DNA of 64,000 nt from Terriglobia bacterium (GTDB lineage: Bacteria > Acidobacteriota > Terriglobia > 20CM-2-55-15), in NCBI GenBank assembly GCA_965198225.1, contig CBDAOY010000006.1:544001-608000 (forward strand), read 5' to 3'. The position numbers were made by a program, and so were the translations under genes. Below are positions 1-7,919 of this stretch, piece after piece; the stretch's first letter is position 1; every line of letters starts with the position of its first letter. Under the pieces are notes generated by a model. The model was given only the letters and a program-made list of their open reading frames with translations, made no database searches and was not told the origin of the DNA.

Positions 1-65
1 CCCCCTACCTTTTAAATCGCCGAGTGGCGAGCAACCGTCCTCCCGGAGTCGGTAAACGAAGCGGC

Positions 66-184
66 GTTACACGCGGGGAATCGCCGCGGCGGTGTTTTTC
101 CTTTCAAAATGTCTGCCCGTCGGGGTTACACGCGGGGAATCGCCGCGGCGGTGTTTTTCCTTTCAAAATGTCTGCCCGTCGGGG
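66..184. repeat. Perfect 59-bp tandem duplication
   Basis: gttacacgcggggaatcgccgcggcggtgtttttcctttcaaaatgtctgcccgtcggg occurs at 66-124 and again at 125-183. Confidence 0.95.
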
Positions 185-489
185 CATTTCTTTTCGGGCC
201 GGTAGTGCGGACTTCCGATTGGACGCTATCGGTAAATTGTCCAGTCGGGGGTAACACTGGCGCGGACTGACGCAATTCCCATGCGCTAACAAATACTCAT
301 TGCGAAACCGGTGTTGCGCTATTGCATCTTTTTCAAGCCCGCGGCCCCAGCGGATAAGAGTCGGCAACCACGCGACAATCGCGACAATGGAGTCGCGTCG
401 AGAACGGCTTTATCCAGTCGCTGCCCACGCATGTTGCTGAGGATGTTACGTCGTGAATTGCGCGCGGGCTTGCTTCATGCGACGCCTTC

Positions 490-1572
490 GTGGCTATCGG
501 CGTCGCATACCGGCCGCGTAATCCGGAAACGACAGTGCTGTATCAGGTCGTCGCGGAACAACTGGAAACTTTCCTCGCCAGACAACAGGAGCGCGACCGT
601 CCGGTCCTCCGGTTTGTTGAAAAAGAATTCCGTACCTTTTTGGATTGCGGTATTCTCGCGCGGGGTTTTCTGCGGCTTCACTGCCAGGACTGTGGACAGG
701 ATCGGCTGCTGGCGTTTTCCTGTAAAGCGCGCGTCTAGTGACCTGTAACAGTAGGCCTTGGAACTGAGGCCGACCCTCAACAAGCAGATCCCCTGTCAGA
801 AGACGATCCCGGTATGGCCGCTCTGCTGGCCAGTTCCGTCGGCCGCAGGATTGCGGTCGGCCGCAATGCCGGCCATGGCGTCGTGCGCATGGGAGACCAG
901 ATCGACCCAGACAGCATGGACGCCTTCGAGGGCCCACGCTGCGCCATGGTTTCTGGCTTCAGTGTGCACGCCAATATCTGTGTTGAGGCTCGCGACCGGT
1001 TGCGCCTGGAAAGGCTGATGCGCTATGCGGCCCGTCCCGCAGTCGCTACCCAACGCGTGACGGTACTCCCCGATGGCCGGCTCCACTACCGTTTGAAACG
1101 TCCATGGCGTGACGGAACCACCGCTGTTGTTTTCGAGCGCCAGGACTTTATCGCGAAACTAGCGGCCCTGGTCCCGGCGCCGCGCGCTCACCTGACGAGG
1201 TACCAGGGAGTACTTGGCCCTGCTGCAGCGTGGAGGTCCTTGATCGTTCCAGCCAGCCATGACAGTCGCAGGGAAACCGAAGTGAAACCGCGGCCTACCG
1301 CCCAACAATCAGCCGAGCTGACTGTTGCGGCTGAGCCCTGCACGGAATCATCTGCGCGCAATCGCAATTACACCTGGGCGGAGTTGATGAAACGTGTCTT
1401 CCTGGTGGACGTTCTTCAGTGTGAACATTGCGGCGGAAGGATGAAAATCCTTGCAGCAATTCGTCCGCCCACGGTCACAGTAAGAATCCTGGAGTGCCTG
1501 GGCCTGCCTTCCCGCGCCCCGCCTCTGGCGCCGGCCTCTTCCGACTACAACTGCCAGATGGACGCCTTCTGA
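490..1572 (+). pseudogene. IS91-family (rolling-circle) transposase with internal deletion
   Basis: 490-738 encodes the Zn-binding N-terminus (YRPRNPETTVLY...DCGILARGFLRLHCQDC...AFSCK); 814-1572 encodes the C-terminus (GFSVHA, RYAARP, PRAHLTRYQGV, CEHCGGRM); the middle is missing and replaced by an 18-bp MITE end at 735-752. Confidence 0.85.
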
Positions 1573-1712
1573 ACGTCGACGTCACGACGCTGCGGGACGG
1601 GTGTGTCTCCGCAAGACGGAAAACTGCCTTGAATCTGCCGCCTGCCCGGAACATCCTGCCTTGAATCCCCCGCGCGACGGCCTGCGGCCGCGCGCGGGTG
1701 TACATAACACCC

Positions 1713-3039
1713 CACTAGTGTCCGGTTAGAAGTCGAATAGAACCAGCTGGTTAGGATCTTGGAGTTCATTGAATTGGGAATCAGGCGCGTGAAAGGCCTG
1801 CAAAATGGGCTGTTTCTCAAGAATCGCAATGCTGAGAATCTGTAGGATTTGGTAAAGACTCCTATCGATGCCGAGGCGCTTCCGGATGATGGCGACGAGA
1901 ACATAAACCGAAATGGCGATCCAGATCTGGGTCTTCACCGCATTCTCGCTGGTGCCGTAGAAGGACTTGATTCGAAGGTGTTGTTTGATCCATTTAAAGA
2001 AAAGTTCCACCTGCCATCGCGACTTGTAGATCTGAGTGATGGTGAGTGCAGGCAACGCGAAGTTGTTGGTCAGGAACTTCAACCGCTTGTTCGTCCCGGC
2101 ATCGAAGTAGCTGATACGCCGCAACGGATCGGGATAGGTTTTGGCGGATTTGTTCGTTGTGAGGATGACCGTCTGGTCGGATCGCAATCCCGTGGTCGTG
2201 TCCACCCGACGGGAGTACCGCCGCCGCAGGACGACGTTCTTCTTAGCACGCACCACAAAGAAAGCGGAACAGAGGGAGAAGAGAAAGAGCCGTTCAAAAT
2301 CGATATAGGCGCGGTCCATGACGTAGAAGGCACCCGCTTCGGGTGCGATCTCATCGAGAACGTTGACGTCATGGACTTTCCCGTCTGTGACGTGGATAAA
2401 CGCGGGAATGTTGCCGTGAAGATCCAGCAGTGTATGCATCTTGACCGCGGCTTTGTGCCGGCGAAACCGGGCCCATGGGAATAGTGAAAGACACAGGTCA
2501 ATGGTGGTCGAGTCCAGGGCATACAGACCTTGATCCAACTCGACGCCGATGGGGTCTTCGGCATATAACGGCCGCGCCATGCCGATCAGGACCTGTGCGA
2601 AATCCGCATAGATCCGCCAGTCGCGCCGCTCGTTGGCGTCGGCCAGTGTCGTCCGCGCCACCTTGCTTCGGAATCCCATGTGGTAACGCTTTCTGCCGAG
2701 GGCGCGTAAGCAGGCTTCGATGTCGCGGAGGCTTTCACGATAGGTCAATTGGGCGAATGCCATCGCCAGGAACTGATCCCAGCAGGAAAACCCTTTCTGC
2801 TGGTAATCGCCCCGATAGCGGGCGACACACTTCTGAAACTCGTATCGGGGCGCGTAATCCATGACTTGTGAGAAGACGGTTTGGCCTGAGTTCATGCGCC
2901 ATTGGTATCACCCCTCTCACCGTAATATTGCTAAAAGTGTGATCGGCAGGTTCAAATCGAAAAATCGTAGAATGCCCTTCAACTCACTGTCCATCTATAA
3001 GTTGCCGGCGGCTGTTGCACCGTGTTCCGGACACTAGTG
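1713..3039 (-). mobile_element. Complete IS4-family insertion sequence
   Basis: Perfect 13-bp TIR CACTAGTGTCCGG (1713-1725 / 3027-3039); 9-bp direct repeat ATAACACCC at 1704-1712 and 3040-3048; encloses a transposase. Confidence 0.93.
1726..2895 (-). CDS. IS4-family DDE transposase (DUF4372-type N-terminus)
   Basis: 389 aa; LDSTTIDL, VMDRAY and YKSRWQVELFFKWIKQ (IS4 YREK-type motif). Confidence 0.93.
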   Translation of the reverse strand: MNSGQTVFSQVMDYAPRYEFQKCVARYRGDYQQKGFSCWDQFLAMAFAQLTYRESLRDIEACLRALGRKRYHMGFRSKVARTTLADANERRDWRIYADFAQVLIGMARPLYAEDPIGVELDQGLYALDSTTIDLCLSLFPWARFRRHKAAVKMHTLLDLHGNIPAFIHVTDGKVHDVNVLDEIAPEAGAFYVMDRAYIDFERLFLFSLCSAFFVVRAKKNVVLRRRYSRRVDTTTGLRSDQTVILTTNKSAKTYPDPLRRISYFDAGTNKRLKFLTNNFALPALTITQIYKSRWQVELFFKWIKQHLRIKSFYGTSENAVKTQIWIAISVYVLVAIIRKRLGIDRSLYQILQILSIAILEKQPILQAFHAPDSQFNELQDPNQLVLFDF

Positions 3040-3109: not shown

Positions 3110-3242
3110 GGTGAGCGCTTTGGACATCGTGACGTTGGCCGGGGCATGTGCCACTCTTCTCGCCGCCTCTATCGCGGCGGGATACTTACCTGGGCGACGC
3201 GCTGCTCGGATCGACCCGATGGCGGCACTCAGAGCCGAGTAG
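3110..3242 (+). pseudogene. C-terminal remnant of ABC/MacB-like permease (ADOP-like)
   Basis: ...AGYLPGRRAARIDPMAALRAE* is the typical permease tail; the upstream part is replaced by IS DNA. Confidence 0.75.
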
Positions 3243-3439
3243 CCCCGGTCCTAGCGCCAACGTGCAGCTCCATCAGGCGATAGGTCCTGCCTTGTCGCCT
3301 AGGGTTTACCATTTTTGCGGAAGTGAATGGCTCTACCCTTCGGCGTTACTCAGGACCTAAAGTCTTTCTTGTCTGGAAGTGCCATTCGTAGTTAACTTTA
3401 CCCAGATTCTCACGGTCCGCTTCAGCACGCACTGGCACC

Positions 3440-3541
3440 ATGGAACCTGGCACCAAACTCAGCCACTATGAAATCTTGTCCGCCATCGGCAGAGGTGGCA
3501 TGGGGGAGGTGTGGAAAGCCCGCGACACAAAGCTCGGCCGC
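3440..3541 (+). pseudogene. N-terminal fragment of Ser/Thr protein kinase
   Basis: MEPGTKLSHYEILSAIGRGGMGEVWKARDTKLGR closely matches the start of the intact kinase at 52606; similarity then stops. Confidence 0.8.
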
Positions 3542-5720: not shown

Positions 5721-7322
5721 TCATATGCTCAGTGAATCAGGCCGCCGTTGCCGTGACAACAACCATTCGAACAAGGTTCGCGACACAAATACCGATGTAA
5801 ACAAGTTGGTCACGAGTCCGATGGCAAGCGTGACGGCAAAGCCGCGGACTGATGCCGTTCCGAACAGGAACAATGACATGGCTGAGATCAGTGCGGCCGT
5901 GTGGGTATCGACGAGCGTGACAAAGACGCGGCCGAAGCCCGTCGCAACCGAAGACACCGGCGTTTTCCCCGACCGTAGTTCTTCCCGGATCCGCTCGAAT
6001 ATCAGAATGTTCGAGTCGATGCCCACGCCGATAGTCAGGATCACCCCGGCAATCCCCGGCAGAGTCAGCGACGCGCCAAAGTAGGCCAGCGCGCTGAAGA
6101 GAATGAGAATGTTCAGAATCATCGCCACGGTAGCGTTAACTCCCGCCATCCGATAGTAGAAGAGCATGAACAGAACAACGGCGACCAGTGCCACGACTCC
6201 AGCGAGAATCCCTTGCCGAATCGAGTCCGCGCCAAGCGATGCGGATACCTGACCTTCGGCCAGGTACTCGAGAGACGCCGGCAGTGCCCCGCTACGAAGA
6301 ACGAGAGCCAGGTCCTGTGCCTCCTGGAGCGTGAAACCACCTGAACCGCCCCGGATAATGCCCGAGGTGCTGATCCGCTCTTCAATGCGCGCCGCTGACT
6401 GGATCCTGTCATCGAGAACGATCGCGAGAGTCCGCCCGATGTTTTGTTCGGTAACACGTCCGAATCGTTGTGATCCGTCAGGGGTGAGCGTGAACCCCAC
6501 CGCCGGCCGATTGTTTTCGTCACGGGAGGTATAGGCGGATCGCAGGTCCCGGCCCGTGATCGCGGCCACGCGGCGCACTGCGTACCATGTCTCGGACGAA
6601 TCAGTTGCATCTCGTTCCCCCGACTCCATCAACTCCAAATCAGCCGGCAGCGTTTCACCGTAGGTCGCCCTGGCCGCCTGTTCGCTCGCGAAGGGGCCCG
6701 AGTCTGCGAGCTTCACTTCGAGAAAAGAAGTGGACTGTACGACTCCGCGAACGCGATCAGAATCCTCGACTCCGGGCAATTGGACGAGAATCTCATAGCG
6801 GCCGGAGCCGCCGTATCGCTGAATCACCGGCTCGGTCACTCCGAGCCCGTCAACCCGATTTCCGATTGTGAGCATCGCTTGAACGACGGCTTGATCACGG
6901 AAACCATTTTCCGCTGTGGCTTCCATCTGCACGACATACGTATAGGGAGGGCTTCCCGTAACGGATACGACGTTCCATTCTGGAAACTCTTCGTTCAAGA
7001 TCCGACGGACATCTCTACCTTTCGAGGAGTCGACGCCGGCGATCCGGAAGCGGTTGACTTCGAGGCGGGAGTCCTGCCTGAAACGGACGTTGTCCCGTTC
7101 CAACGCCTGGCGAAGACGTTCAATTGCACGGTCGGTCTCCGCTCGAACGGCATCGTCGGTGACGACTCCAAGAATGAGGTGGGTACCGCCTTTAAGGTCC
7201 AGGCCCAGTTGGATCCGCGCCTCCATATTGGCGAGGCTTGGCGGAAAACCCATGAGCAGGTAACTCGCGAAACAAGTGACACAGACGATAATCAGTAGAC
7301 GAGCTCGAATCCTCTTGTTCAT
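5721..7322 (-). CDS. secD: Protein translocase subunit SecD
   Basis: 533 aa; LGLDLKGG, GVTEPVIQ, ILVQLPG, LRSGALPA, TLPGIAGVILTIGVGIDSNILIFERIREE. Confidence 0.95.
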   Translation of the reverse strand: MNKRIRARLLIIVCVTCFASYLLMGFPPSLANMEARIQLGLDLKGGTHLILGVVTDDAVRAETDRAIERLRQALERDNVRFRQDSRLEVNRFRIAGVDSSKGRDVRRILNEEFPEWNVVSVTGSPPYTYVVQMEATAENGFRDQAVVQAMLTIGNRVDGLGVTEPVIQRYGGSGRYEILVQLPGVEDSDRVRGVVQSTSFLEVKLADSGPFASEQAARATYGETLPADLELMESGERDATDSSETWYAVRRVAAITGRDLRSAYTSRDENNRPAVGFTLTPDGSQRFGRVTEQNIGRTLAIVLDDRIQSAARIEERISTSGIIRGGSGGFTLQEAQDLALVLRSGALPASLEYLAEGQVSASLGADSIRQGILAGVVALVAVVLFMLFYYRMAGVNATVAMILNILILFSALAYFGASLTLPGIAGVILTIGVGIDSNILIFERIREELRSGKTPVSSVATGFGRVFVTLVDTHTAALISAMSLFLFGTASVRGFAVTLAIGLVTNLFTSVFVSRTLFEWLLSRQRRPDSLSI

Positions 7323-7465
7323 AACGCACCTGAGTCCCGGATGCGCCGATGCGGTCCGGATCGCCGATGCCGGGACAGGGAAGAATTGGTGGTTGGACCC
7401 GCAGGTGCCGAGAAACCAAACGCAGCTTGCGGCACTACGGAAGAACGGTCGTTTGAACTCGAGGT
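7323..7465 (-). promoter_or_regulatory. Structured secD leader with SD-sequestering and alternative hairpins
   Basis: SD-containing CAGGTGC (7332-7326) is complementary to 7408-7402; 7410-7405 can instead pair with 7435-7430; inner stem 7334-7340/7370-7376. Confidence 0.55.
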
Positions 7466-7786
7466 CTAGATCCGAAGAACGTGGTGTTTGGCGAGAATGT
7501 CGTCTGGAGCCCTCAGAGAGGCTGTTCTCTGGATGAAGAGCTCTTCCGTTGGATCGCCATTTGGCCTGGGTGTGTCGACACTGAATCGTGACAGATGAGA
7601 CTTGCAGTCATCGTTCAGCGTGAGATGCTGGCGAGGGTGCAGTTCGGGGGGAGCCAGCGGCGCAAAAGCCAGGTGGTGGTCGTCAGTGCCTTCCTGGGTC
7701 GCACTGAATTCGGTCCCGTACGTCGCAGAGCTGCACACGCCGAGGACCAAGATCAACATCAGTGCAATTGAGACACTACGCAACAC
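7466..7786 (-). CDS. Putative secreted leader/arrest peptide upstream of secD
   Basis: GTG start with upstream GAGGA; 106 aa; signal-like N-terminus (VSIALMLILVLGVCSSATYG); ends LRAPDDILAKHHVLRI*. Confidence 0.55.
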   Translation of the reverse strand: MLRSVSIALMLILVLGVCSSATYGTEFSATQEGTDDHHLAFAPLAPPELHPRQHLTLNDDCKSHLSRFSVDTPRPNGDPTEELFIQRTASLRAPDDILAKHHVLRI

Positions 7787-7919
7787 GAATTTATTGTGAT
7801 CCTCGCAGGTCGAAAACGCAATGTTATCGACGAATCCCAACGGAGCTCGGCGGTACAATTCGCTATGGGATAATCAACCGCGCCCACGCTTCTACGGCGG
7901 GCCACCTCCACTGAAGTCC

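Follow-up and report, generated by a model that had tools for sequence, protein, structure and literature searches.

A candidate secretion-monitoring leader peptide and a predicted long-range RNA helix upstream of a stand-alone secD paralogue in Terriglobia

The window considered here, a stretch of 64,000 nucleotides on contig CBDAOY010000006.1 of a Terriglobia bacterium (assembly GCA_965198225.1), carries a stand-alone paralogue of secD, designated secD2, and directly upstream of it a small open reading frame (ORF) with a predicted export signal, the leader. Comparison of related loci, together with RNA folding and a simple ribosome model, suggests that a ribosome translating the whole leader probably unmasks the initiation site of secD2, which would otherwise be held in a long-range helix. 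We further propose, with a probability of roughly one in two, that the leader is a Sec-monitoring substrate that acts close to its stop codon and controls secD2. The source genome (G000) was taken as the reference, positions are those of the window, and its features lie on the minus strand unless stated otherwise.

The SecD2 protein matched the Pfam families SecD_1st, SecDF_P1_head and SecD_SecF_C and aligned over the full length of TIGR01129 (secD) with 401.8 bits, the curated cut-off being 244.4; ratios of non-synonymous to synonymous substitution (dN/dS) of 0.17-0.23 among three orthologues indicate purifying selection. The ORFs flanking the leader and secD2 had no Pfam match, hence neither yajC nor secF is adjacent, and the canonical operon layout (yajC before, secF or a fused SecDF after) was not found at secD2. 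The sole YajC and sole SecF detected in the genome are encoded, together with a second SecD that is 68% identical to SecD2, in a tgt-yajC-secD-secF locus on contig C9. The window gene is therefore an extra, stand-alone secD, as the original prediction had described it, and the housekeeping yajC-secD-secF that was envisaged elsewhere in the genome does exist. The co-oriented ORF of about 106 amino acids said to end 143 bp before secD was likewise confirmed on the minus strand, with exactly 143 nt between the leader stop and the secD2 ATG. Since the genome has one SecF, the simplest inference is that SecD2 would pair with it. In line-up with nine SecD1 sequences SecD2 has only nine fixed columns of its own, most of them conservative changes, and the GIDSN segment of its transmembrane region is invariant between the two; the Asp of this segment presumably has a role in proton conduction.

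The predicted helix joins the end of the leader to the start of secD2 (UUCGGAU-(CUAGA)-CCUC-GUUCA-AACG-ACC with GGU-CGUU-UGAAC-GAGG-AUUCGAG). The leader stop codon falls within a small internal loop, and the helix encloses two hairpins. This helix appeared in the minimum free energy (MFE) structures of G000 and of two further genomes with the same gene pair, G020 and G002, as well as in the RNAalifold consensus of the three, and in both kinds of fold the Shine-Dalgarno sequence (SD) and AUG of secD2 were paired. The SD of secD had been placed in a stem from the single sequence; that placement stands, and conservation backs a masking helix. The enclosed hairpins, whose coordinates are approximate and were converted by hand from alignment A3, show compensatory changes at alignment columns 96:138, 165:205, 166:204 and 177:193, and the spacer had no Rfam family match at E up to 1.

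Four-fold degenerate sites of secD2 served as the neutral yardstick, 100 of 219 being invariant over the three genomes (about 54% variable). By this measure the remainder of the spacer varies at the neutral rate (45 of 83 sites), as against 12 variable sites among its first 45 nt. The conserved block starts with the third-last codon of the leader, ends 24 nt beyond the stop and includes a 16-nt invariant run (7443-7458), the expected invariance being about 46% per site; even with up to 1 mismatch allowed, this 16-mer occurs at no second place in the 6.4-Mb genome. A 35-nt block, chosen by conservation alone, was paired with the secD2 translation initiation region (TIR), giving duplexes of -22 to -24 kcal/mol in the three genomes. 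These energies were reached by 8, 21 and 8 of 2000 shuffles and by 6, 30 and 10 of 2000 random genomic 35-mers, so that complementarity exceeds that of 98.5-99.7% of shuffles or random 35-mers (top 0.3-1.5%), the three tests not being independent as the loci are homologous. At the proposed register 96% of the cells of a four-sequence alignment could pair, versus 24-50% when the 3' partner was slid, and in the same sequences one or two helix pairs turned from C:G into U:A by changes on both strands.

The best single argument for a functional structure is its recurrence, with different nucleotides, at a divergent second locus (G009b). There, on a contig of 2377 nt (G009:C64, locus L062), a long-branch secD paralogue at 416-2005(+), 59% identical to secD2, is preceded by an ORF at 3-299(+), cut by the contig start, which is 21% identical to the leader and ends with SSIVKRQRVFRI-stop; no secF-like ORF was found in the 370 nt downstream of this secD. 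The sequence around the stop reads GUG UUU CGG AUU UAG AUCCUCCCG. In the MFE fold the last five leader codons pair with secD codons 4-8, and CUCCCG, starting 6 nt after the stop, pairs with the local SD CGGGAG, leaving the latter with an unpaired probability of 0.01; the z-score of the fold was -1.74, and the energy of the block-TIR duplex was reached by 44 of 2000 shuffles. The two kinds of locus thus share a layout, in which the helix formed with the secD start takes in the stop codon and an anti-SD follows the stop at a distance of at most about 12 nt; a masking helix is predicted in all four loci. The G009b secD had no close orthologue in 400 genomes of the class (best match 66% identical). 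Its contig is only as long as the cassette described below, as would be expected of a sequence flanked by repeats.

The leader itself evolves as a coding sequence: pairwise dN/dS is 0.40-0.45, the frame is open in all three loci and in three metagenome proteins (P0001-P0003), and a 3-nt indel within it preserves the frame. The GTG start is kept in the three loci, although the choice of start is not certain; an alternative TTG at 7858 would give 130 codons, and it is not conserved and lies outside the cassette. The hydrophobic N-terminus and the tail SLRAPDDILAKHHVLRI-stop noted in the original prediction are both there. The best 13-residue Kyte-Doolittle window, VSIALMLILVLGV (residues 5-17, mean 3.02), is preceded by Arg, and the hydrophobic segment is kept in five full-length homologues; from the -3/-1 rule, we take the putative cleavage to follow SSA. 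AlphaFold2, run on a shallow alignment of six sequences and hence weak, returned a helix at residues 2-22 and coil for the rest, with a predicted local distance difference test score (pLDDT) of about 50.

Constraint is distributed unevenly along this peptide. Codons 1-24 are constrained, with 7, 5 and 10 of 24 sites variable at the first, second and third codon position, and codons 51-89 form an essentially unconstrained linker (22, 16 and 18 of 39). Within codons 90-103 variation is again low (8 of 41 sites; 1, 3 and 4 of about 14 by codon position). The six-sequence alignment of the tail reads SL[RKG][AP]PD[DN][IL]L[AV][KR]HHV[LF]RI, and PD[DN][IL]L[AV][KR]HHV[LF]RI is present in five of the six; the distant G009b has VFRI-stop. 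No Pfam or NCBIfam family matched the leader. A disguised YajC was considered and rejected, as Pfam PF02699 gave no match and hhalign against the YajC of contig C9 a probability of 0.2%.

These properties agree with the four criteria by which monitoring substrates have been sought in silico (Sakiyama 2021 and Fujiwara 2024; PMC10987492). The leader is a small unassigned ORF directly upstream of, and co-oriented with, a sec gene; it has a predicted N-terminal signal or transmembrane segment; about 83 residues (from about 23 to 106), hence more than 30, separate the signal from the C-terminal end, a spacing within the Sec-monitor range (PMC10987492); and that end is conserved, a point confounded by the position of the RI-stop codons in the helix. 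It is the combination of an exported N-terminus, a free linker and a constrained tail that matches the published criteria.

The mechanism that we propose is as follows. One mRNA would serve for the translation of both secD2 and an exported leader of about 106 amino acids. At rest, the long-range helix of this mRNA would close the spacer of about 145 nt and mask secD2 initiation, and a ribosome on the last or the stop codon of the leader would cover the 5' strand and so free the secD2 start. The tail [IL][LV]x[KR]xxV[LF]RI-stop may slow termination or the last elongation steps, and the pull of Sec on the exported N-terminus would relieve the pause. Poor secretion would then lead to longer unmasking and to more SecD2, which would pair with the single SecF. 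What the sequences show is a conserved cassette, a leader that evolves as coding DNA, a profile of signal, neutral linker and constrained tail, a conserved and complementary anti-TIR block, and a divergent second locus of like layout; the in vivo helix, the pause, the export-driven release and the SecD2-SecF pairing we infer.

The position that a ribosome would have to occupy was explored with a crude footprint model, in which nucleotides -12 to +15 from the first base of the P-site codon are covered. When the A site was occupied by the stop codon, modelled accessibility of the secD2 AUG rose from 0.34-0.36 to 0.73-0.77 in G000 and G020, and in G009b the SD opened from 0.01 to 0.29. A ribosome at R-A-P|D, the motif originally named as a possible arrest signal, or one four codons before the stop, made no difference to the secD2 TIR in any of the three genomes. 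Crude as it is, the model excludes RAPD as the site in question and favours the stop codon. As for the terminal V[LF]RI-stop, which had been offered as a second possible signal, the geometry fits, but peptide conservation at that place is confounded by RNA pairing.

Table 1. Coordinates in the window of the leader, secD2 and the predicted RNA elements
Feature	Position	Strand	Description
Conserved cassette (ORF, spacer, secD2)	5721..7818	-	About 2.1 kb, common to three genomes
secD2	5721..7322	-	Stand-alone SecD paralogue, 533 amino acids, ORF intact
Leader ORF (upstream ORF, uORF)	7466..7786	-	GTG start at 7786, UAG stop at 7468-7466, 106 codons
Signal-peptide-like N-terminus (predicted)	7724..7786	-	About codons 1-21: MLR, SVSIALMLILVLGV, CSSA
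Conserved C-terminal tail	7469..7519	-	Codons 90-106, SLRAPDDILAKHHVLRI
Helix 5' strand (predicted)	7447..7476	-	Last 3 leader codons, stop and anti-TIR: UUCGGAUC UAG A CCUC ga GUUCA AACG ACC
Helix 3' strand (predicted)	7304..7331	-	SD AGGUG 7331-7327, AUG 7322-7320, codons 2-7
Two spacer hairpins within the helix (predicted)	7334..7441 (about 7441-7398 and 7376-7334)	-	RNAalifold consensus

Several results weigh against the monitor proposal, and some of them against the helix as well. The single-sequence fold energy is unexceptional (z = -0.72, 46 of 200 shuffles as good), the duplex of the whole spacer with the TIR was reached by 271, 479 and 160 of 1000 dinucleotide shuffles, and covariation is sparse, 119-128 of 500 column shuffles matching that seen in the four sequences. 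In the footprint model the SD became less accessible with the ribosome at the stop (from 0.48 to 0.30 in G000 and from 0.44 to 0.20 in G020), and G002 hardly responded (AUG from 0.34 to 0.37-0.39). G002 also has a 1-nt deletion (L028, about 3236-3250) before the conserved UAG, which moves the stop 31 nt further, so that the leader gains 11 codons and runs into the anti-TIR block; the deletion may be a real variant or an assembly (long-read indel) error, for P0001, nearly identical to the G002 leader, retains HHVFRI-stop. As to the peptide, six close sequences and one distant one make up the whole leader family, so that a conserved C-terminus is a weak statement, and third positions in codons 90-103 are somewhat conserved too (4 of 14 variable). 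The last two leader codons (CGG AUY) and the stop lie in the helix, paired with conserved Ile-Arg codons of secD, and conservation of this part of the tail is therefore confounded with constraint on the RNA. The tail resembles no known arrest motif, having neither a C-terminal Pro nor RAPP nor DGMK. The idea that UAG might be a rare stop was dropped, this codon ending 851 of the 2544 long ORFs of the genome.

Plain translational coupling we regard as a possible though less probable explanation. Classically, the start of a downstream gene is hidden in a structure that melts only when an upstream ORF is translated, and coupled genes normally encode partners in a fixed ratio. Here, each ribosome finishing the leader would transiently melt the helix and a 30S subunit would load on secD2, the leader peptide being either a side product or a small protein, exported or anchored, that serves some function of its own. 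The RNA evidence fits this account as well as it fits monitoring, conservation of the terminal RI-stop is explained by pairing with the Ile-Arg codons of secD, and the leader has no known arrest motif. Moreover, the frame-shifted G002 leader would still be translated through the anti-TIR strand, which would preserve coupling at that locus but not an arrest specific to RI-stop. Yet coupling, with the same need for unmasking, gives no reason to keep a signal sequence, and no other part of the peptide is as well conserved; the upstream product is exported and apparently disordered. Against a folded exported protein with an independent function speaks that its mature part is predicted to be disordered, that its centre is nearly neutral and that, except for the tail, it is unrecognisable in G009b; nor was the peptide met anywhere without secD2, either in the protein searches or in the 400 class genomes. 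The signal that coupling leaves without a reason, the unconstrained and disordered centre and the constant linkage to secD2 are the grounds on which the monitor reading is favoured.

An absence of any functional link is unlikely. In that case the leader would be a small protein, secreted or in the membrane, that acts independently, or else a partner subunit of SecD2; secD2 would be translated constitutively and the helix would be a by-product of GC-rich sequence, which agrees with the unexceptional fold energies and with covariation too sparse to prove a structure. Against this stand the post-stop block, whose conservation clearly exceeds the neutral expectation, the complementarity of that block to the TIR, the masking of the SD re-created at the same place in G009b, cassette ends that enclose exactly ORF, spacer and secD, and the lack of similarity to YajC.

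Very improbable is the version first suggested, in which elongation is arrested in RAPP-like fashion at R-A-P|D, Pro being in the P site and Asp in the A site, and the secD SD is thereby uncovered: RAPD does occur in G000, G020 and P0003, and Asp in the A site is among the residues with which ApcA (RAPG), the only one of these peptides to tolerate it, still arrests, and ranks eighth for ApdP, but the homologues have KAPD (G002, P0001), GPPD (P0002) and IAVS (G009b), whereas in ApdA and ApdP the three residues next to the peptidyl transferase centre are strictly required, single substitutions of R, A or P abolishing arrest and each replacement of the A-site Pro weakening it (PMC7897499). In place of the Pro or Gly of RAPP-like motifs the A site would receive Asp, Asn or Ser, and RAPD lies 13 codons before the stop, its Pro codon 43 nt upstream of the post-stop strand. 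The original proposal of an acidobacterial monitoring substrate for an accessory SecD thus keeps its leader linkage, its agreement with published criteria and its masking helix, and loses its RAPD signal.

Leader, spacer and secD2 form a conserved cassette, which behaves as a mobile, horizontally moved unit according to sequence comparison. This rests on sharp homology ends, differing neighbours, bracketing by insertion sequences (IS) and conflict of the gene tree with the species tree. Three-way DNA identity was 0.4-0.9 within the cassette and 0.0-0.23 beyond either end, homology starting about 30 nt before the GTG (about 7818) and ending at the secD2 stop (5721), and the cassette neighbours differ among the three genomes. 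In G020, 100% identical, inverted, IS30-like copies of 1270 nt flank the cassette at a distance of 2264 nt from each other (L057, 2566-3835 and 6100-7369; also L027, 245-1417 and 3788-4597), an arrangement like that of a composite transposon, which may be an assembly artefact of the metagenome-assembled genome (MAG). In the SecD tree the three SecD2 proteins form a clade with 100/100 support, and its sister group consists of housekeeping SecDs from several genera. Inside the SecD2 clade the partner of G000 is G020, which is from another genus, rather than the congeneric G002. The G000 cassette, too, lies in a region rich in mobile elements, with transposase genes at 814-1572(+) (Y2_Tnp) and 1726-2895(-) (DUF4372 and DDE_Tnp_1), 3-5 kb downstream of secD2.

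The distribution of the cassette is narrow and takes in a few Acidobacteria from soil. Among 60 relatives, strong leader matches were confined to G000, G020 (64% identical to the G000 leader) and G002 (55%), and in all three the leader stands directly upstream of the secD2 orthologue (84% and 77% identical to that of G000, other SecDs at most 68%). A homologous ORF is thus found before each secD2 orthologue (3 of 3), and a very divergent one before the G009b secD, which supports the original prediction on this point. A leader profile search returned the same three among 34 genomes of the family or order and three among 400 of the class Terriglobia, and a pattern scan of one genome per species gave the same two foreign loci, both in Terriglobia MAGs. 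Three metagenome homologues (P0001-P0003) came from a search of 5.8 billion protein clusters. Nothing credible beyond P0003 came from a profile search of 1.84 billion proteins, in which two tandem-repeat proteins were judged spurious; scans of metagenome contigs with peptide patterns and a DNA pattern found no further leader homologues, and contigs from four DNA runs gave identical sequence only and no new leader variants. A look for RNA or ribosome-profiling data on the locus returned none.

Some further observations concern the same region or the same genes. The secD frame is open for 95 codons before the ATG (7323-7607, minus strand), without ATG, GTG or TTG, giving a stop-to-stop frame of 628 amino acids; as the extension is not conserved in G020 and G002 (553 and 568), we take it as chance in GC-rich DNA. 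An intrinsic-terminator attenuator at 7439-7421(-), a hairpin followed by UUUGGUUUCU, is terminator-like in G000 only and was rejected, as the U-tract is not conserved in G020 or G002. A sigma-70-like TTGCGT-17-CACAAT, seen by eye in the conserved 30-nt leader segment, was not returned by a scan, and no claim is attached to it. At 3440-3540(+) lies a short ORF starting MEPGTKLSHYEILSAIGRGGMGEVWKARD, possibly a fragment of a gene. Its start, in our judgement, resembles the glycine-rich loop near the N-terminus of Ser/Thr protein kinases, but the frame then degenerates, and Pfam gave no match to it at E up to 0.001. Genome G021 has two complete secD-secF pairs (L031 = G021:C4 and L061 = G021:C20), and one of its SecDs is nearly identical to that of G003, of a different genus (branch lengths 0.002-0.006), which suggests MAG contamination or a very recent transfer.

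Should the leader indeed stall ribosomes, the monitoring substrates would gain a family from Acidobacteria whose motif is new, lacks proline and lies close to the stop; it would help to learn how nascent chains block termination and would be the first case found with SecD alone as the regulated target. The locus also raises the question of a SecD paralogue exchanging with the resident SecD on a single SecF. With sensor, switch and effector in one unit of about 2.1 kb, IS copies around it in one genome and a gene tree that disagrees with the species tree, it suggests that secretion-capacity modules may move horizontally with built-in regulation. Only tentatively would we advance the fullest version, in which a new arrest-peptide family ([KR]xxV[LF]RI-stop), its stop codon embedded in an RNA switch that spans about 145 nt, senses Sec activity and SecD2 swaps into the housekeeping SecDF, the whole being an IS-flanked 'secretion booster' that moves between Terriglobia genera.

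Such peptides are already known to be widespread and patchy; what we rate as new are the leader family, the SecD-only target, the spacer-spanning helix that includes a stop codon, and the behaviour as a mobile cassette. No arrest peptide from Acidobacteria was found described in the full-text literature, the supplementary candidate lists, which may hold related uORFs, being outside its scope; the word 'Acidobacteria' occurs 0 times in the main texts of PMC10987492 and PMC7897499 and in PMC12992588 only in the legend of a motif-frequency figure. Among known systems, the ApdA/ApdP/ApcA family with RAPP-like or RQH motifs (PMC7897499, PMC10987492, PMC12992588) also has a uORF before secDF, and R-A-P is present in G000 and G020, but the fourth residue there is Pro or Gly and here Asp, R and A are not conserved, and the motif lies beyond the reach of the RNA switch. 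SecM-secA of E. coli (PMC7897499) follows the same logic, namely a signal, a C-terminal element and an SD-sequestering intergenic structure opened by a held ribosome; it differs in that RAGP, whose Pro occupies the A site, is placed five codons ahead of the stop, and in a local stem-loop instead of a helix that spans about 145 nt and includes the stop codon.

Closest in function are VemP-secD2F2 and the '-stop' class of uDF peptides. VemP of Vibrio alginolyticus (PMC7793623, PMC11470409) is likewise an exported leader for an accessory SecD(F), with a housekeeping copy elsewhere, although it regulates a full secD2-secF2 pair by elongation arrest, whereas SecD alone is encoded here and the leader has no sequence similarity to VemP. 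The NAP-stop and DGMK-stop uDF peptides (PMC10987492) and LudP (bioRxiv 10.64898/2026.10.26.761930), which reportedly can also induce termination arrest, share with the present leader a uORF with a localisation signal directly before secD(F) and a motif at the extreme C-terminus. Neither NAP, NSP nor DGMK immediately precedes the stop of the leader, which ends in V[LF]RI-stop; the known examples belong to Bacteroidota and Firmicutes, and the present one to Terriglobia of the Acidobacteriota, before a secD without secF and with an arrest that is only proposed. Nevertheless, the '-stop' peptides stall with the stop codon in the A site, and this is the sole ribosome position that fits the helix described here.

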